A DNA stretch of 64,000 bases, taken from assembly GCA_017430985.1 (NCBI GenBank), contig JAFRLZ010000069.1:302-64301 (forward strand), in the 5' to 3' direction. The position numbers and the translations under genes are program-made. This DNA comes from Oscillospiraceae bacterium (lineage in GTDB: Bacteria; Bacillota; Clostridia; Oscillospirales; Oscillospiraceae). Below the pieces are notes generated by a model. It was not told where the DNA came from. It searched no databases and worked only from the letters and a program-made list of their open reading frames with translations. Positions 2,151-35,472 of this stretch are shown here, piece by piece (position 1 is the first letter of the stretch; the number at the start of each line of letters is the position of its first letter).

Positions 2151-2304
2151 TTGACAAAGAAATATATTTGCGGTATTATATACTCGTACTATGGTAGTTA
2201 AGGTTTACTGTGGCTTAGTGCCGCAGTAAACCTTTTCTGCTATAGCTATACTCCGCTTTCACAGACTCACTGTTTCCCCATTTTGGGGCAGTGGGTCTGT
2301 TTTT
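2151..2304 (+). promoter_or_regulatory. promoter plus structured leader/terminator module, copy A
   Basis: TTGACA (2151-2156), 17-nt spacer, TATTAT (2174-2179). Hairpin 1 at 2202-2232 has a 13-bp stem and 5-nt loop, then TTTTCT. Hairpin 2 at 2262-2299 is followed by TTTTT. No ORF. Near-identical copy at 5491-5646. Confidence 0.7.
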
Positions 2305-2341
2305 ATATATACACTTCAAATAAAGGAAGGGAAAGAAACAA

Positions 2342-5402: not shown

Positions 5403-5454
5403 ACTTTACAAGGCGATGCTTTTGAAACAATAAATTGGGAGAACAAAGCACAAA

Positions 5455-5481
5455 GCAAGGAGGAAACTCCTTGCTTTTTTT
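5455..5481 (+). terminator. intrinsic terminator ending the ORFan operon
   Basis: GCAAGGAG / CTCCTTGC stem with GAAA loop, followed by TTTTTTT. Confidence 0.8.
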
Positions 5482-5490
5482 ACGCCAAGA

Positions 5491-5646
5491 TTGACAAGAT
5501 TACACATTTGCGGTATTATATGATCGTACTATGGTAGTTAAGGTTTACTGTGGCTCAGTGCCGCAGTAAACCTTTTCTGCTGTAGATAAATCCCGCGTTC
5601 ACAGACTCACTGTTTCCCCATATTGGGGCAGGTGAGTCTGTTTTTT
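5491..5646 (+). promoter_or_regulatory. promoter plus structured leader/terminator module, copy B
   Basis: TTGACA (5491-5496), 17-nt spacer, TATTAT (5514-5519). Hairpin 1 at 5542-5572 and hairpin 2 at 5602-5640, followed by TTTTTT. Every element is offset by exactly 3340 nt from copy A. Confidence 0.7.
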
Positions 5647-5691
5647 ATATACGTTTGCTTAAAACGAGAAAAAACATGGAGGTAGAGACAA

Positions 5692-5949
5692 ATGACTTTT
5701 TCGTTATCTCAGATTGCGAGGTGCTACGCTGCCACGGTCGGCAGAGATTCGTACACCTCCGAAAAAGATGTGACCATGCGGTTGAAATCGAGCATTTCTC
5801 GTCAGCAGACCAATGTTCTCGATGACGACCGCGACATCCGAAATCCGAAGGAGATCTATGACCAGACCATCGGAGCGGAGTGCAGCAAGAAGAGCGGCAA
5901 ACTGCCGTTGAAGAGACTTCAGGGAAAGCACTTCGTCGCTCTTGCCTGA
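5692..5949 (+). CDS. hypothetical protein (85 aa)
   Basis: GGAGG lies 9 nt upstream of the ATG. First ORF after leader copy B. Confidence 0.55.
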   Translation: MTFSLSQIARCYAATVGRDSYTSEKDVTMRLKSSISRQQTNVLDDDRDIRNPKEIYDQTIGAECSKKSGKLPLKRLQGKHFVALA

Positions 5950-5976
5950 AGGAAAAAAAGAATAGGAGGGAAAAAC

Positions 5977-7190
5977 ATGTGCAAACCCCAATCTCTTGAC
6001 TCCTACGAAACTCTTTTTGGGAAAGACCGTTTTGCGGATCTTATCAAAGAAGTCGAGGAGATGGAAGCCAACTCCAAGTGGATTCCCGACGTGGAGACCG
6101 CGGGCATGACGGTGAAGACCGTCGATGGCCGTCCGCTCTTCGTGACCGAGGAAGCCAAGGAACCTTCGTGACCGAGGAAGCCAAGGAACTCGGCGCCGAC
6201 GAGGAGCTCACGGAGGAAACCGGCATCACCGGCTCCGGCCTTGCTCTTCAGCTGCCGAATGGACGCACCGAGCTGTTGAGGGACACTGCTATGTCAGGTC
6301 TTCTCAACGCCGGCAAGATCGACGGCAAGTGGCAGAGCTATGTCACCAAGCCGGAATTCTGCCTGATCATGAACACGATCTTTCCCCATATCCGCACGAA
6401 ACGCCTTGTGCTGGAACGTTGGGGGAAGGTGAGCGCCATTCATTCTCAGGCGGATGGCGGTTACGAGATCATCCCGATCTCGGCTGCCCTTGAGATCGCC
6501 GTAGACGCACTCAGAAAGCGCTTCGGAAAGCTGGTGTTCACGAGCGGGTACAACTCCCACTCGCGCACAGAGGCCGTCTGGGAGCTTCCAGACGCCCAGA
6601 GCGCCCTGTGTCAGAAGTATCAGGATGCGCTCGACGGTACGATGTCTCAGGTTCCGGTCAACTTCATGCCGGTCGTGCGTTTCCGCTCCTCGGATACGGC
6701 GAACTCCGCTGTCACTCTGGTGCCGGGTTTCAGAAAGCCCGGCGACAAAGCGATCATCAGCTTTGTGCCCGGAGCAAGGACTGAGCACACAAAGGGCGGC
6801 AAGGAGGAAGACGTTTCCGGTCTTGATCTGTTCAGAGAGGACGCGGGAATGATCTATTCCCAGTTCGAGAAGAGCATGGAGAAAATCGCCGCGCTCAAGG
6901 ACATCGAGATCAAGCACGGCTGCAATGCCGTGATCGGCCTGGCGAAAAAGCTGGTGATCTCGCGCAAGTACGCGGAAGCCGCTCGTTCGACCATGGAGAT
7001 GTTCACCGACGGCGACATCGGCAATCCCGTGACCGGCCATGACCTCTATTTGGCGATGACCGAATGCATTTCTGAGGCAGTGCGTTCCGGCGCCTCCCAG
7101 AAGACGATCATGGACACGGAGGAGAAGGTCTACCGGATGCTCAAATTCGATCTGACCGAGTATGACAAAGGTGGTGTGGTGGCCTGGTGA
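5977..7190 (+). pseudogene. DUF932-like phage/plasmid protein gene split by a 26-bp tandem duplication (frameshift)
   Basis: ORFs 5977-6171 and 6078-7190 both read FVTEEAKE across the duplicated unit. Deleting one unit gives a continuous 395-aa ORF. The DUF932 assignment is tentative and rests on RFRSSDTANSAVTL-type segments. Confidence 0.7.
6138..6189 (+). repeat. perfect 26-bp tandem duplication (2 units)
   Basis: CTTCGTGACCGAGGAAGCCAAGGAAC occurs at 6138-6163 and again at 6164-6189. Confidence 0.95.
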
Positions 7191-7238
7191 TCCAGGCTGC
7201 CACCTTCCGAAAAAAAGTAAATAGGAGATGAAACAAAA

Positions 7239-8672
7239 GTGTTCTTCGAATGTAATCTTCCGAGGTCACTGATCCCGGTCTATCAGCCCTGGCTCTATCA
7301 GGCGCTGGAGAGCACGATCAGGACGGTGTATCAGAGGACGAAAAAACTCAACGCCGCGCTGGATTATCTCAATCGCTGCGGCTGTCCCATGCAGCCGGAA
7401 ACGTTTCAGCTTTGGGCGAGCTCCGTCTTTAAGCTGAATCCCGGCCGCTTCGATGCGCTTTCGCACGCGGAGCTGGCAACGCTCTGCATGTCGCTGTACG
7501 ACGGCGAGGAGCAGCCGAAGCGTCTGGAGTTTCCCAATGCCATTGTGCTGTATGATACCGCCTTTGTCACGACGAAGGATTGGGAGATCCTGCGGCACAT
7601 CGGGCTCGGCGGCTCGGACAGCTCGGTCACGAACGGTGCTTCCGAGTTCCAGACCGAAGAAGGGCTTTTCTATGAAAAGCTCGGCTATACGGATCTGCTG
7701 GCGGCTGCCGGGAAGAGACTCTCGGACGACAAAGGCGGCGCCGTATTCGAACGCGGTCATAACGTGGAAGATAAGGTGATCTCCATTTTCTGCGAAATGA
7801 CCGGAGCTGTTCGAATCCGTGAAACGCGCATGTTCCAGAGCAAGCGTTACCCCGCTTGCACGGCCAACGTGGACGCAATCCTCAGGATGCCTGACGGCGA
7901 AACGGTTCCCTTCGAGGCCAAGTCCACGATAGACCAGTACACCACGAAGCAGAAGTGGTTCGGCGATGCGGTTCCCATGTACTATCTCACGCAGGTGCAT
8001 CAGTATCTCGGCGTGCTCGACGATCCGCGCATCAAGCGTGCGTTTATCGGTTGCCTGCCGGTCAACGATGTCATTCTGGCGGATAAGTACATCGCCAGCG
8101 AGCCGGCCTACTTCAATGGTGAGCGTCAGTATTTCCATCAGGAAATCAAACGGGATCTGGAGATGGAAACCGCGGTCATGACCAATGCCCAGAATTTCTG
8201 GGACAGGTATATCGCCATGAATCTCAAGCCGAATCCCAGCGGGAAAGCGGACATGGATCACTATGTCGCGCTGCATTTCCGCCCTTCGCCTTTGACGGAC
8301 GACGCTGCTGCAGACCTTGAGACGCCCATCAATATCGCCTACGGCGATGTGGAGGACGACTACGCCCAGTTCAAAAAGCTGGATGCCGAGATCTCTTCGC
8401 TGCAGGAACGCATCAAGACGCTGGACGAGGGCCGGAAGGTTCTCAAGGATAAGCTGGCAAATCTTATGGGAGATTCCGTAGCCGCCACCGTGATCGATCA
8501 CGACGGTAACCCGATCTTCTATATGACCAACAAGCCCGGCGCCAAGATCACCTATGATCGGGAGATCCTTGAGAAATATTTCCCGGAGGCGGAAGAGAAA
8601 GCGAGGCGGGTTTCCTCCTATCTCACGCTCCGCGTAACGGAGAAGGCGCCCAAGAAGAAAAAGACCAAGTAA
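7239..8672 (+). CDS. YqaJ-like (lambda-exonuclease fold, PD-(D/E)XK) recombination exonuclease domain protein, 477 aa
   Basis: GLGGSDSSV...FYEKLGY...FERGHNVEDKV...ANVDAIL...FEAKST...VPMYYLTQVHQYLGV matches the YqaJ motif order. GTG start after GGAG. Has an extra N-terminal region of about 110 aa and a C-terminal coiled coil. Confidence 0.7.
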   Translation: MFFECNLPRSLIPVYQPWLYQALESTIRTVYQRTKKLNAALDYLNRCGCPMQPETFQLWASSVFKLNPGRFDALSHAELATLCMSLYDGEEQPKRLEFPNAIVLYDTAFVTTKDWEILRHIGLGGSDSSVTNGASEFQTEEGLFYEKLGYTDLLAAAGKRLSDDKGGAVFERGHNVEDKVISIFCEMTGAVRIRETRMFQSKRYPACTANVDAILRMPDGETVPFEAKSTIDQYTTKQKWFGDAVPMYYLTQVHQYLGVLDDPRIKRAFIGCLPVNDVILADKYIASEPAYFNGERQYFHQEIKRDLEMETAVMTNAQNFWDRYIAMNLKPNPSGKADMDHYVALHFRPSPLTDDAAADLETPINIAYGDVEDDYAQFKKLDAEISSLQERIKTLDEGRKVLKDKLANLMGDSVAATVIDHDGNPIFYMTNKPGAKITYDREILEKYFPEAEEKARRVSSYLTLRVTEKAPKKKKTK

Positions 8673-8747
8673 ATCCCGGAAAGGGGAGAGGGACATGAAA
8701 GAATTTCTGCTCCCCTCGCGGGCCGCTCCTGTAGAGGGGGTGACTCT

Positions 8748-10931
8748 GTGACGGGAGAAGAGAACCAGAAGCAGTTGGAAACTCTGGAAGCAACATTCCA
8801 ATCCAGCATCTTTGAGGCAGCGGACAAGAGCTTCTGCATTTACCGGTATATGCGTTCAGACGGATCGCAGGTGATCGCAGTCGGAACGGATCTGCCGAAT
8901 CGCAGACAGCTCCCCGTACTGCTGCATGGAACGTGGGAGATCTCCAAGAAAACCGGCGGCAAGCAGCTGCGCGTTGCTTACTCGGAAGCGGCGCCTGTGC
9001 GCGACAGGGATCAGGTCATTTCCTACCTGTGCTCTTTGAAGTGCGGGATCGGGAAAATGAAAGCCATGGCCATCTGGAAACGCTACGGTGAAGCCAGCTG
9101 GGACGTTCTGGACAACGATCCGGATAAGATGGTGAAAGACAAGCTTATTTCGCCAAAAATCCTTGAAAAGCTGATGGATGCGCAGAAAAGCGCGATCTTG
9201 TCCCGCAATCTGCTGAAGCTGTTCGCGGAGGCGAACATCCCGGTAGGCGGAGACATGATCCACCGTCTGATCGAAAGACACGGAGAAAAAGCCGATGTGC
9301 TGCTCCGTGATAACCCGTATATCGCCATCTCGCGCGATGAGCTGTCCTTCGAGAAGGCAGATGCGCTCGCTGATGCTCTCGGTTTTGCCAAAAACGATCC
9401 CCGCCGCATGGCCGCTGTGATCGTGAAGGTTCTGGATGACGCGGCTGTGAACGGTCATGTATGCGTTCCAAAGGAAATGCTGCTGGATATGGTCAAAACC
9501 TATACCGGCTGCCCTATGGAGGAATGCGTCAAGGCCATCAATGCCGCATGCCGTGAGAAAAAAGCTGTTTATAGCAGCGGCTTTGTGTATGCCAAAAGGC
9601 GATACGACGAAGAAACTGCCATAGCAGACAACATCCAGAGACTGATGACGGCCTGCTCCGATCCGGTCCGCGGCCTGGATGCGTTCATCTCAGACTACGA
9701 ACGCGAGAACTTCTCGCTTGCGGAATCGCAGCGGGAAGCGATCCTGCGCGTCTTCGAGTCCGGCGTGAGCGTGATCACAGGCGGCCCCGGCACAGGCAAG
9801 AGCACCGTCACGAACGCGATCCTGTATGTCCACAAAAAGGCGTATGGGGAGTCGAGCGAGCCGATCCTGCTCGCGCCGACCGGGAAAGCCGCAAGGCGTC
9901 TTGGAGAAGCGAGCGGCTGCGGCGCGCAGACGATCCACTCCGCCGTGGGCTGGCGCGGCGATGAAGTCGAGGCAGAGCCGTGCTCTCTGCACGGGAACCT
10001 CTTCATCATCGACGAGAGCTCCATGATGGATCAGTTCGTTTGCGATATCTTGCTGGAGGCCATCCCGAGCGGCGCCCGCGTCGTCTTCGTAGGTGACTGC
10101 GACCAGCTTCCGTCTGTCGGATGCGGCAATGTCCTGAGTGATTTCATCTCCTCGGAGGTGATCCCCACGACGAGGCTGCACGTCATCTTCCGTCAGGCCG
10201 AAGACAATCCGATCATCGAGAACGCCCGCCGAATGAACGAAGGCGACTCGAACCTCATATACACCGATACGTTTCGGTTTTATGAGGCGCACAGCTCCGA
10301 CGAGCTGTTCGAGTCCGCCTGTGATTTCTATGCGCGCTGTGTGGAAGCATACGGGATCACGAATGTGATGCTCTTGAACCCACAACGCAACCACAGTGAT
10401 CTGACTGTGGACCGGTTCAACGCCGCGCTTCAGGAACGCATCAACCCACCCTCCGACGACAAGAACGAAATCCGGATCGGTCGTCAGATCTTTCGGGAAG
10501 GGGATCGCGTCATGGAGCTGCGGAACACCGAGCGTTCCAAGAACGGCGATACAGGCGTGATCCACCGGATCGAGAAGCGGGAAAGCAGCACTGATCCTCC
10601 CGAGTTCTACAGCGTGGCCATCATCGAATTCAACGACGACGGCGTTCTGCTGGATTACAATGCGGACGACCTGCATCATGTGACGCTGGCCTATGCCAAT
10701 ACCGTCCACAAGGCGCAGGGCGAAGAGTTTCAGACCGTGATCATGGTCATCACAAAGGCCCATTACGCGATGCTTCGCCGGAATCTCGTTTATACGGCTG
10801 TTACGAGAGCCAAGCAGCATGTCGTACTTATGGGTCAGCTGGATGCGTTGGACACGGCCGTGAAAAACAATCAGGCGGATGTGAGGTATACCTTGCTGGC
10901 CGCCAGATTGAGGCACAAACTGAAGAAATAG
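8748..10931 (+). CDS. RecD-like (RecD2/SF1B) ATP-dependent DNA helicase, 727 aa
   Basis: Walker A GGPGTGKST, Walker B IIDESSM, VGDCDQLPSVGCGNV, TVHKAQGEEF, VYTAVTRAKQHVVLMG. GTG start after AGAGGGGG. Confidence 0.85.
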   Translation: MTGEENQKQLETLEATFQSSIFEAADKSFCIYRYMRSDGSQVIAVGTDLPNRRQLPVLLHGTWEISKKTGGKQLRVAYSEAAPVRDRDQVISYLCSLKCGIGKMKAMAIWKRYGEASWDVLDNDPDKMVKDKLISPKILEKLMDAQKSAILSRNLLKLFAEANIPVGGDMIHRLIERHGEKADVLLRDNPYIAISRDELSFEKADALADALGFAKNDPRRMAAVIVKVLDDAAVNGHVCVPKEMLLDMVKTYTGCPMEECVKAINAACREKKAVYSSGFVYAKRRYDEETAIADNIQRLMTACSDPVRGLDAFISDYERENFSLAESQREAILRVFESGVSVITGGPGTGKSTVTNAILYVHKKAYGESSEPILLAPTGKAARRLGEASGCGAQTIHSAVGWRGDEVEAEPCSLHGNLFIIDESSMMDQFVCDILLEAIPSGARVVFVGDCDQLPSVGCGNVLSDFISSEVIPTTRLHVIFRQAEDNPIIENARRMNEGDSNLIYTDTFRFYEAHSSDELFESACDFYARCVEAYGITNVMLLNPQRNHSDLTVDRFNAALQERINPPSDDKNEIRIGRQIFREGDRVMELRNTERSKNGDTGVIHRIEKRESSTDPPEFYSVAIIEFNDDGVLLDYNADDLHHVTLAYANTVHKAQGEEFQTVIMVITKAHYAMLRRNLVYTAVTRAKQHVVLMGQLDALDTAVKNNQADVRYTLLAARLRHKLKK

Positions 10932-10943
10932 GAGGAGATGAAA

Positions 10944-11162
10944 ATGCCGGAAATCAAACGGCGTTACGTGTACAATGGCGCGGTCTCCTCGTATGACCGC
11001 GTTATCTGTGACAGGTGCGCAGAGGTCGTCACCTGGGCAAGCTCCGCTTCAAAAGCGGAATCCAATGTCAAATTCCAGCTCCGCAGGCGCTGGAACATGG
11101 CGCAATACGTCCCTTTGAAACTTTTGGACAAGATCAGGGAAGCCCCTGCTTCTCCTGCCTAA
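10944..11162 (+). CDS. hypothetical protein (72 aa)
   Basis: GGAGG at 10931-10935 is spaced 8 nt from the ATG at 10944, so this start is preferred over 10938. Confidence 0.45.
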   Translation: MPEIKRRYVYNGAVSSYDRVICDRCAEVVTWASSASKAESNVKFQLRRRWNMAQYVPLKLLDKIREAPASPA

Positions 11163-11165
11163 AAG

Positions 11166-11194
11166 TGGACAAGAAAGCGTCAATGTGGTATAAT
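11166..11194 (+). promoter_or_regulatory. internal sigma-A-type promoter
   Basis: TGGACA, 17-nt spacer, extended -10 TGTGGTATAAT. Confidence 0.55.
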
Positions 11195-11223
11195 AAAACA
11201 AAAAAAGAAGAAGGAGAATCATC

Positions 11224-12267
11224 ATGGGTTACAACAACGGCAATGGCTACAGCTACAACAATGGCAGCGGCGGCTACGCTCCCCAGGGGCAGCCGCAGAA
11301 CGCGGCTCCTCAGGGCGGATACCCGCAGCAGACCCCTGCGCAGAACTATCCTCCTCAGGGACAGGCGCCCCAGTACGGCACCCCTCAGGGCGGATACCCG
11401 CAGCAGGCTCCAGCTCAGAATCCGGGTTACGCGCCCGCTCCCAACGGCAGCTACGGTCAGGCGCCTCAGCAGAGCGGCTACCAGCAGCAGGGGAGCGGCA
11501 GGGAGAAGGTGCAGTATAGCTCCTATATTGTGAACATTCCGGAAAACGCTTCCTGTCTGGAGGACACTCAGGTAACGGTCGCTCTGAACAACATCGACAA
11601 GAGCCTGAACCTGTATATCGAGCAGCTGACGAGCAAGAACAACAACCGCTGCGTCAAGTTCTCGTTCGATCTCACGATGGCGGACAGCGAGTGCAGCCGG
11701 CTCCTCGGCAAAGATGCCGTGGCGCCCGACCACAAGATACGCTTCGAAGCGCTCATGGCCGGCTGGGATGCGGAAAACTTCCTGAAGTATATCCCGCACT
11801 GCAGCAAGACCATCGTTCTGATGCTTCGGAAGCTGAAGCTCGATTCCTTCACTCGCAGGGACGGTTCATCGGTGCCGAAAGTGGATTGCCTGGTCAGCGG
11901 CTACTTCGTCGTGAACATGAGCAGCAAGTACAAGGCCGCTGCGATCAAGGCGGCGAATCTGGAAGAATCCAAGCCCTACCATGTGAACGTCCGCAAGCCC
12001 AAGAACGATGGCGGCGGCGCTCCCGCTCAGGCCCCGTATTCTCAGCAGAGCGCTCCCTATGGCGCTCCGCAGGGCGGATACCCGCAGCAGGCGCCCGCGC
12101 AGAACACCGGCTACACGCCCGCACCCAACGGCGCTTATGGCCAGCCGCCTCAGCAGAGCGGCTACCAGCAGCCGGGCGGCAACGGCTACGGCTACGGTGC
12201 TCCGCCTCAGAACGGTATGCCCGGCGCTACGCAGTACGGCGGAAGCGGCGGGAAACTCCCGTTCTAA
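11224..12267 (+). CDS. SSB-like OB-fold protein with Q/G/P/Y-rich N- and C-terminal low-complexity tails, ending in LPF
   Basis: The core segment IRFEALMAGWDAENFLKYIPHCSKTIVLMLRKLKLDSFTRRDGSSVPKV resembles the SSB pattern F..a.WG..AE....Y..KGS.v.V.G.L....f..rdG. The C-terminus GGSGGKLPF resembles the SSB ...LPF tip. The tails resemble an SSB Gly/Gln/Pro linker. Confidence 0.45.
   Translation: MGYNNGNGYSYNNGSGGYAPQGQPQNAAPQGGYPQQTPAQNYPPQGQAPQYGTPQGGYPQQAPAQNPGYAPAPNGSYGQAPQQSGYQQQGSGREKVQYSSYIVNIPENASCLEDTQVTVALNNIDKSLNLYIEQLTSKNNNRCVKFSFDLTMADSECSRLLGKDAVAPDHKIRFEALMAGWDAENFLKYIPHCSKTIVLMLRKLKLDSFTRRDGSSVPKVDCLVSGYFVVNMSSKYKAAAIKAANLEESKPYHVNVRKPKNDGGGAPAQAPYSQQSAPYGAPQGGYPQQAPAQNTGYTPAPNGAYGQPPQQSGYQQPGGNGYGYGAPPQNGMPGATQYGGSGGKLPF
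11383..11487 (+). repeat. 105-nt intragenic direct repeat, N-terminal copy
   Basis: Encodes PQGGYPQQAPAQNPGYAPAPNGSYGQAPQQSGYQQ. Paired with 12067-12171. Confidence 0.9.
12067..12171 (+). repeat. 105-nt intragenic direct repeat, C-terminal copy
   Basis: Encodes PQGGYPQQAPAQNTGYTPAPNGAYGQPPQQSGYQQ, which matches the N-terminal copy at 31 of 35 residues. Confidence 0.9.
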
Positions 12268-12293
12268 GCGTCAGGTCAACACAATACCGAGAA

Positions 12294-12327
12294 GGCGCAC
12301 AGAGTATATCTCTGTGCGCCTTTTTTT
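12294..12327 (+). terminator. intrinsic terminator after the SSB-like gene
   Basis: GGCGCACAGA / TCTGTGCGCC stem followed by TTTTTTT. Confidence 0.85.
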
Positions 12328-13288: not shown

Positions 13289-13501
13289 ATGGATGATAAA
13301 AATGTAATAACCTATACCAAAGGCGAAGGCCAAATTATGGTTAAGAGATCCTTCTGCAATAACGCAAAACCGGTATCCGAAGCGATTAAAGATGTGATAA
13401 TTAAGAAAGCGCATGAAAAAAACATTTTGACGAGTCCGCAAAATCTTGATATGATGTTATCGTATATCGGAGAGCCGACTTGCATCCAAGAAGGAGGGTA
13501 A
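13289..13501 (+). CDS. hypothetical small protein (70 aa) immediately upstream of the recombinase
   Basis: AT-rich ORF. Its stop lies 2 nt before the recombinase ATG, and the recombinase RBS is inside its 3' end. Confidence 0.45.
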   Translation: MDDKNVITYTKGEGQIMVKRSFCNNAKPVSEAIKDVIIKKAHEKNILTSPQNLDMMLSYIGEPTCIQEGG

Positions 13502-35168: not shown

Positions 35169-35472
35169 TTGACAAGCGCCGAAGCATCGATTATAATGCA
35201 GGCAACGCTGAGAAGAACAGGAGTAACCGCGTTTTCTCTGCACAGAGAGCCCCCGTTTGCTGAAAGGGGGAGAGAGGCGCGCGGCGAATACGGTTCGGAG
35301 CGGCACACCGAAGTCCTTTGGGGATGCGTAGGCTGTGACGGGCGCGCCCGATATCGCGCAGGAGTGCCGCAGGGCACTCGCCGAGGCTCTTTCCGCGAGG
35401 AAAGAGCGCACAGAGGTGGTACCGCGTATACCATACGCCCTCTGTCCGAAAGGACAGAGGGCGTTTTATTTT
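35169..35472 (+). promoter_or_regulatory. promoter plus T-box leader, predicted Tyr specifier (UAC at 35289-35291)
   Basis: TTGACA-17-TATAAT at 35169-35197. Stem I elements AGGAGUA and CAGAGAG. GAA-UAC-G specifier context. T-box sequence GGUGGUACCGCG at 35415-35426. Terminator GCCCTCTGTCC/GGACAGAGGGC plus T-run at 35437-35472. Confidence 0.85.

Follow-up and report, generated by a model that had tools for sequence, protein, structure and literature searches.

Late gene control in lambdoid phages relies on the promoter PR′, the qut site, the terminator tR′ and the antiterminator Q: The strong promoter is followed by a terminator within ~120-200 nt, the initial transcribed sequence is conserved, and only a short RNA is produced until a factor that has loaded near the promoter allows the polymerase to continue. 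Phage λ also possesses the N protein with its sites nutL and nutR, composed of boxA and boxB, and phage HK022 carries putL and putR; in these systems, structured RNA with a phage-specific hairpin lies just past the early promoters and is repeated at several operons. Among Gram-positive mobile elements, the plasmid pLS20 has the zipper-type attenuator cATT and conAn antitermination (PMC13401043, PMC8191782, PMC10325885), and the Firmicute integrative element Tn916 is subject to termination/antitermination control by canT (PMC11658703). T4-type phages contain PeSLs, dispersed repeats of a strong σ70-type promoter with a terminator-grade stem-loop, which are found in front of ORFan blocks and recombine between copies (PMC2839356). 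In a 64,000-nt stretch of a metagenome-assembled genome (MAG) from an Oscillospiraceae bacterium, hereafter the window, we analyzed a cassette whose design is of a known kind, namely promoter-proximal termination control, while its RNA and presumed factor are undescribed: We found no paper on the cassette RNA, and Rfam 15 holds no family for it, as a search gave no match at gathering score and, with E-values admitted up to 10, two chance matches (mir-1263, 19 bits; rli43, 16 bits).

The cassette is ~155 nt long and is predicted to consist of a strong promoter, a very stable RNA hairpin and a subsequent stop signal, with each copy heading an operon (Table 1). A BLAST search of the whole MAG with copy B returned copy B itself and copy A only (91% identity over 139 nt, E 2.8e-51), and a repeat search assigned both copies to a direct repeat family of 173 nt that is 84% identical without gaps. 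Their flanks are unrelated, with 37% identity in the 60 nt upstream. An earlier note on this DNA had stated that each copy directly follows the terminator of the preceding unit and that the two copies head different operons; both statements agree with the sequence, the former also with a terminator scan. The differences that it listed between the copies reappear in our alignment as well: They comprise the promoter spacers, the hairpin loops (TTAGT vs TCAGT and ATTTT vs ATATT), the linker (CTATAGCTATACTCCGCT vs CTGTAGATAAATCCCGCG) and a single change in the terminator stem, by which a U-G pair in copy A corresponds to a U-A pair plus a bulged G in copy B. However, one of the substitutions attributed to the linker, the A-to-G change at 5582, sits in a 9-bp outer helix, where pairing is kept as a U-G wobble, and this helix extends hairpin 1 to a rod that is longer than originally described.

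Table 1. Predicted features of the two cassette copies and their surroundings; positions refer to the window.
Feature	Position	Strand	Remarks
Predicted terminator upstream of copy A	2113-2134 + T-run	+	
Copy A	2151-2305	+	Promoter 2151-2179, rod 2189-2245, linker 2246-2260, terminator 2261-2300 + T-run
Operon headed by copy A	start 2342		DUF3232/ORFan
Predicted terminator of the preceding (ORFan) operon	5453-5482 (stem-loop 5453-5476 + T-run)	+	10-bp stem AAGCAAGGAG/CTCCTTGCTT, GAAA loop; same palindrome in terminator scan
Copy B	5491-5646	+	
Copy B promoter	5491-5519	+	TTGACA, 17-nt spacer, TATTAT; 11/12 consensus matches
Copy B leader rod	5529-5585	+	Outer helix CUAUGGUAG (5529-5537) with CUGCUGUAG (5577-5585), RNAfold
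Copy B hairpin 1	5540-5574	+	15-bp stem, loop UCAGU, conserved U-G as fourth pair from loop
Copy B linker	5586-5600	+	Unpaired 15 nt, AUAAAUCCCGCGUUC; AAAUCCC core kept across diverged lineages
Copy B leader terminator T2	Hairpin 5601-5641, U-tract 5641-5646	+	11-bp basal stem ACAGACUCACU.., bulged G, apical CCCC(A)/(U)GGGG
RBS GGAGG and ATG of first gene (85 aa) behind copy B	5678-5694	+	
Operon headed by copy B	5692-12267		
Ungated promoter before serine recombinase gene	13427-13475	+	TTGACG-17-TATGAT, similar initial transcribed motif CGTATATCGGAGAG, without leader hairpins

In a consensus scan, the score of the copy B promoter is the highest within the first 16 kb, tied with three other sites, one of which is the promoter of copy A. 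All six close copies have the same hexamers, with a spacer identity of 56-66%. With a start ~7 nt past the -10 hexamer, the predicted transcript of copy B begins with UACUAUGGUAG. According to RNAfold, the rod has 24 bp and a folding energy of -36.9 kcal/mol, and is built from the 9-bp outer helix, a 2×2 UU/UU internal loop and the 15-bp hairpin 1. It is followed, past the linker, by T2, a predicted 16-bp intrinsic terminator located ~40-45 nt upstream of the first start codon. The whole copy B leader folds with -63.2 kcal/mol (z-score -10.3; range for the two copies -10 to -11), 17 kcal/mol better than its reverse complement, which reaches -46.3 kcal/mol and loses the outer helix. This antisense fold is weaker because the plus strand forms several of the stem pairs as G-U; the same strand-specific folding is seen in copy A. 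No second promoter-like site was detected by consensus scan between the leader terminator and the start codon in either copy. The operon behind copy B encodes the 85-aa protein, a 395-aa-family protein, a YqaJ nuclease, a RecD2-like helicase, a small basic protein and an SSB-like protein, and is closed by a terminator at 12289-12325. This terminator is unusually long (16 pairs), a length that has been reported to resist processive antitermination in pLS20 (PMC10325885).

A comparison with the described systems places the cassette close to several of them. As in λ PR′-tR′, an intrinsic terminator stands closely behind a promoter and before the genes, to judge by sequence prediction only. However, the Q system comprises one copy, whereas the cassette occurs at least four times per element and adds a long conserved hairpin and a linker, and no Q-like protein was found in the ORFs read. 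Candidate sequences for a -10-like pause element vary between lineages, with TATGGT in the copies of the window (4/6, with A2 and T6) and TATAGA or TTAAGA, without T6, in their relatives. The resemblance to N/nut and put concerns the position, repetition and element-specific sequence of the hairpin, but not its anatomy, since λ boxB has a stem of 5 bp closed by a GNRA-like pentaloop, whereas the cassette rod has 15 + 9 bp and a UUAGU or UCAGU loop and is at once followed by a terminator. No boxA-like sequence precedes the cassette hairpin, and HK022 put works without a protein and, unlike the cassette rod, is not directly followed by a terminator of its own. With cATT, the cassette shares its location in an operon leader of a Gram-positive mobile element, a long extendable central stem-loop and a terminator just before the first gene. 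[quoted passage not shown] Moreover, the cATT leader measures 456 nt and is present once per plasmid, and nothing resembling the large conAn RNA was seen. The canT RNA, likewise found once per element, is a cis-acting RNA of 341-452 nt, and the terminators of Tn916 insulate against outside transcription instead of gating each promoter. In PeSLs, finally, the stem-loop is situated upstream of or within the promoter, or just before the start, and stops upstream transcription; the cassette hairpins, in contrast, lie 10-120 nt downstream of the predicted start, and a separate ordinary terminator stands upstream of the promoter. By analogy, the cassette would work like λ PR′-tR′/Q or N/nut without being a member of either.

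The earlier note had further argued that selection acts on the RNA structure rather than on a protein, and had suggested a covariation check on homologous modules. Within the close group, which consists of six sequences including two from a relative with 81% identity (L012), 143 of 144 rod cells are paired. Five substitutions fall into paired columns; four of them keep the pairing via wobble, one breaks a pair, and none is part of a double change. As copies A and B show no double change, their comparison alone is weak evidence of structural selection. The diverged relatives (L015, L019-L021, L017, L030), whose 391-aa proteins are only 40-46% identical, retain the same cassette layout before the same gene and before a DUF3232 gene, with a different sequence of hairpin 1. 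For these, RNAalifold yields two helices with compensatory double changes in 17 of 28 pairs, divided into 10 of 14 in hairpin 1 and 7 of 14 in the terminator. Aligned on the basis of a model, 13 distinct sequences have 90.6% of their cells paired compared to 36-49% with the partners slid by 1-3 columns, and the covariation score is 0.571 compared to 0.10-0.15 in the slid controls, in a set that represents three or four lineages only and hence few independent events. Within T2, the basal stem is conserved in sequence while the apical stem covaries. The fourth pair from the loop is a 5′-U-G-3′ wobble in 13/13 distinct sequences, though its neighbors covary, and again in 12 of 15 distinct first hairpins across the wider clade; an asymmetry of this sort would not be maintained in a DNA palindrome. 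The diverged relatives thus support selection on the RNA structure instead of on a protein. A leader peptide can be dismissed: A 12-codon ORF is present inside hairpin 1 (ATG at 2193 in copy A and 5533 in copy B), but it loses its ATG in copy B of L012, the leaders of L015 and L019 have no ATG, and the loop changes are non-synonymous.

Two copies, as the earlier note had it, is correct for this MAG but not for the element. Via homologues of the 370-aa ORF behind copy B, we reached contigs that are near-identical and come from one NCBI MAG and from several ruminant-gut samples; they contain two further copies upstream (L050:7934-8094 and L052:8480-8640). Each of these again follows a terminator and precedes an operon, which brings the number of consecutive operons with a cassette to four. 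A comparison of the four paralogues gives 100% identity for the hexamers, for the initial transcribed motif and for either arm of hairpin 1, compared to 66% for the spacer, 80% for the linker and 37% for the 60 nt upstream. Because the initial transcribed motif and the hairpin 1 stem are identical while the promoter spacers are only 66% identical, one regulatory input shared by the operons, as the earlier note proposed, appears a reasonable inference. The apex of T2 exists in two versions, CUGUUUCCCC/GGGGCAG and UUUUCCC/GGGAGAG, both of which are fully paired. The copies are mosaic: Copy B has the discriminator and linker of the second copy, and the T2 apex of copy A and the first copy. It follows that recombination between the copies has occurred, to which their identity is owed in part.

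The design extends well beyond this element. A relative genome, the uncultured Clostridia MAG G401, contains at least 11 promoters over ~110 kb on one strand, which have the form TTGAC, 17 nt, TAAAAN, 8-9 nt, CACATAGNA, and most of which are directly followed by a 10-15-bp hairpin and a U-run. Many related units have a single hairpin that is itself the terminator, and three or four copies of the same design are present at the distant loci L023 and L025-L027. Without exception among the copies and lineages, a gene with an RBS starts 35-50 nt past the terminator, in an operon that lacks any other promoter. The initial transcribed motif is not restricted to gated promoters: It is also found at the one before the serine recombinase gene, which has the same TTGAC-17-TAnnAT geometry (Table 1), and in relatives at L019:16651, L015:16704 and G401 C1:320234, all of them without hairpins. 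The motif is consequently part of the promoter, and where a copy is gated, it is also paired with the 3′ flank of the first hairpin. In the diverged lineages, hairpin 1 itself is followed by UUUUUAUAUAG, and the leader there has two predicted terminators in tandem, each with a 14-16-bp stem and a U-run. The lineage of the window differs by an interruption of the first U-run (UUUUCUGCU) and by a stronger outer helix. The gene content between the cassettes differs among the relatives.

We tentatively favor, with slightly less than even confidence, the reading as a terminator-gated leader regulon that needs a putative trans-acting factor. The near-consensus, housekeeping-type promoter would fire, and the first ~60 nt of the transcript would fold into the very stable rod, in which the initial transcribed motif is paired with the 3′ flank of the 15-bp hairpin. 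Past the single-stranded linker, the long-stem T2 would stop most transcripts ~115-120 nt from the start and ~45 nt before the first gene, and the operon behind copy B would be expressed only when the factor lets RNA polymerase pass T2. Expression should require this read-through because the preceding unit is terminated and the cassette promoter is the sole promoter-like site, with no room for a second one. Neither a riboswitch-like nor a zipper-type alternative fold is built into the leader: When the 3′ arm of T2 is blocked during folding, the 5′ arm stays unpaired. As this arm has no alternative pairing partner, the switch cannot be intrinsic to the RNA. We infer both the termination itself and the existence of the factor, whose gene probably lies elsewhere on the element. 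Its target may be the linker, the promoter-proximal motif or the hairpin specific to the lineage. Given the identical recognition parts in the four copies, one factor would switch four consecutive operons together. A hairpin that is identical within the element, and different yet internally conserved in other lineages, corresponds to the pattern expected of a specificity determinant. It is conceivable, if on the unlikely side, that a new kind of antiterminator reads the lineage-specific long hairpin, the invariant U-G and the AAAUCCC core, and overcomes even long-stem terminators in an element-wide regulon. What counts against gating is the stem length of T2 and hairpin 1, which at 14-16 bp fall into the class that is resistant in pLS20, where this length protects the terminator TerR from conAn antitermination (PMC10325885); the terminators that end the preceding operons have stems of 9-11 bp. 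Further points against a trans-acting factor are that no candidate for it was found in the part of the element read, that the identity of the paralogues stems partly from recombination, and that processivity is not required, as the operon downstream showed no internal terminators. If the reading is true, a large mobile element of gut and rumen Clostridia would control its gene blocks by read-through of built-in stops and not by promoter repression, and the gated blocks would include ORFans, a nuclease, a helicase, SSB proteins and a restriction-alleviation-like protein. The cassette would then represent a compact, testable system of ~155 nt that comes with natural compensatory variants.

The main rival, unlikely in our estimation, dispenses with the factor and regards the cassette as a constitutive attenuator and stabilizer: A strong promoter would be damped to a constant low output by a leaky terminator, the rod would protect the read-through mRNA from decay that depends on the 5′ end or serve as an RNase III site, and the operons would be insulated from each other. 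This agrees with the 5′ end of the transcript, which is paired within 2-3 nt of the predicted start as in the Firmicute 5′ stabilizers of the aprE, ermC and SP82 leaders, and with the 24 bp of the rod, a duplex length sufficient for RNase III. Nevertheless, the tandem terminators of the relatives, with their 14-16-bp stems and U-runs, resemble a tight lock rather than a trim, and the reading leaves the lineage-specific hairpin with its identity among paralogues, the invariant U-G and the conserved linker unexplained.

A point in favor of this factor-free rival is that our searches of the genomes G000 and G401 and of the neighboring ORFs found no regulator. Neither genome has a NusG paralogue: Each contains a single NusG-domain gene, the housekeeping copy, on another contig and away from the cassette cluster, on the basis of which specialized NusG antitermination of the LoaP or RfaH type was rejected. 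In the element stretches read of both genomes, there is no match to sigma region 4, and a search of the sequence read for an RNA-polymerase-like catalytic motif was negative. An element-encoded RNA polymerase, suggested by the resemblance of the start motif to the SP6/T7 core TATAGAAG, was discarded, as a DFDGD-type motif is absent and the giant proteins give no polymerase match in Pfam; the fixed TTGAC-17-TAnnnT geometry instead fits the host σA. Pfam and PHROGs searches of the neighboring ORFs were uninformative and gave no Q-like match on the ORFs read, 20 further neighboring ORFs produced weak zinc-ribbon matches in Pfam only, and for the genes that come first behind the cassettes, Pfam gave no match. 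An ungated unit directly before the second copy (L050:7347-7912) encodes two small proteins with zinc ribbons, of 121 and 61 aa, which are possible regulator candidates; the smaller one has a sub-threshold Ogr/Delta-like match. The small basic protein (67-74 aa; window 10938-11162, L019:16794-16997) is kept in all related elements and always precedes the SSB-like gene, whose product ends with DDELPF. AlphaFold confidently predicts a β-β-β-β-α-β-β topology for it (pLDDT 84); without a significant PDB neighbor or a Pfam match, it cannot be called an RNA-binding factor. At the distant locus L027, a 323-aa protein composed of sigma-70 region 4 and the C-terminal domain of the RNA polymerase alpha subunit is encoded directly behind a cassette (L027:5501-6472), and a ProQ C-terminal-like protein behind another one.

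The remaining alternatives are less likely. It is improbable that rod and linker constitute a cis-acting antiterminator RNA similar to HK022 put or Tn916 canT, which would make the polymerase ignore T2 and later terminators, so that transcripts would be productive only with the leader of the element itself. Structured RNA just past early promoters, in several copies at different operons, is reminiscent of putL/putR, and canT demonstrates that such RNAs exist in Firmicute integrative elements (PMC11658703); yet every transcript that reaches T2, whether it began at the cassette promoter or stems from read-through further upstream, also carries the rod, so that T2 would never act and should not be conserved. 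Moreover, in the many related units with one hairpin this hairpin is itself the terminator, and neither canT with its several hundred nucleotides nor put with its two adjacent stem-loops resembles the anatomy of the cassette. Still more improbable is that the cassettes are genes for stable small RNAs of ~115 nt, acting as decoy, sponge or antisense RNA, with an incidental position before operons: A gene that begins with its RBS within 50 nt of the terminator in all copies and lineages, in an operon devoid of another promoter, speaks against it, as does the short single-stranded part of 15 nt, although the strong promoter, the very stable fold and the good terminator are all features of small RNA genes. 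Least probable is a role at the DNA level, be it hairpin 1 as palindromic operator, PeSL-like homology patches that shuffle gene blocks or a recent duplication, because the mosaic copies, the variable gene content between cassettes and the paired changes in both arms, which a palindromic operator would also be expected to show, are opposed by the T/G asymmetry in 13/13 sequences, by further G-U pairs that work only in the plus-strand RNA, by the terminator-like contiguous 15-bp arms followed by U-runs in relatives, by the divergence of spacer and flanks to 37-66% identity around an identical core, according to which the duplication is not recent, and by a promoter that is essentially single-stranded in the folded template strand, with few short long-range pairs, which rules out an Frpo-type fold-back promoter.

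The element itself had no match in phage and plasmid record collections (distant BLAST) or in pattern and protein scans of IMG/VR. At the DNA level, 400 genomes from the same family were searched and yielded no real copy, and a protein-alignment search of genome contigs gave one locus only. The giant proteins of a relative element contain PcfJ, Cna_B and Listeria-Bacteroides repeat domains, and the T4SS markers of G401 lie outside the stretch read; with its PcfJ-like and adhesin-like proteins, the element leans toward a conjugative rather than a viral nature. The operon that copy B heads contains a perfect tandem duplication of 26 nt at 6138-6189, which splits the 395-aa-family gene (5977-7190) into ORFs of 64 and 340 aa. 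The split ORF was read on 19 contigs, six of which come from at least five samples, and is therefore real and fixed in the lineage instead of being an assembly error; in the 81%-identical relative L012, the 395-aa gene is intact. A Cas9 gene adjoins one of the distant related elements (L025:1-1100), and the host part of the window contains a T-box leader at 35201-35445 (Rfam RF00230, 93.5 bits).
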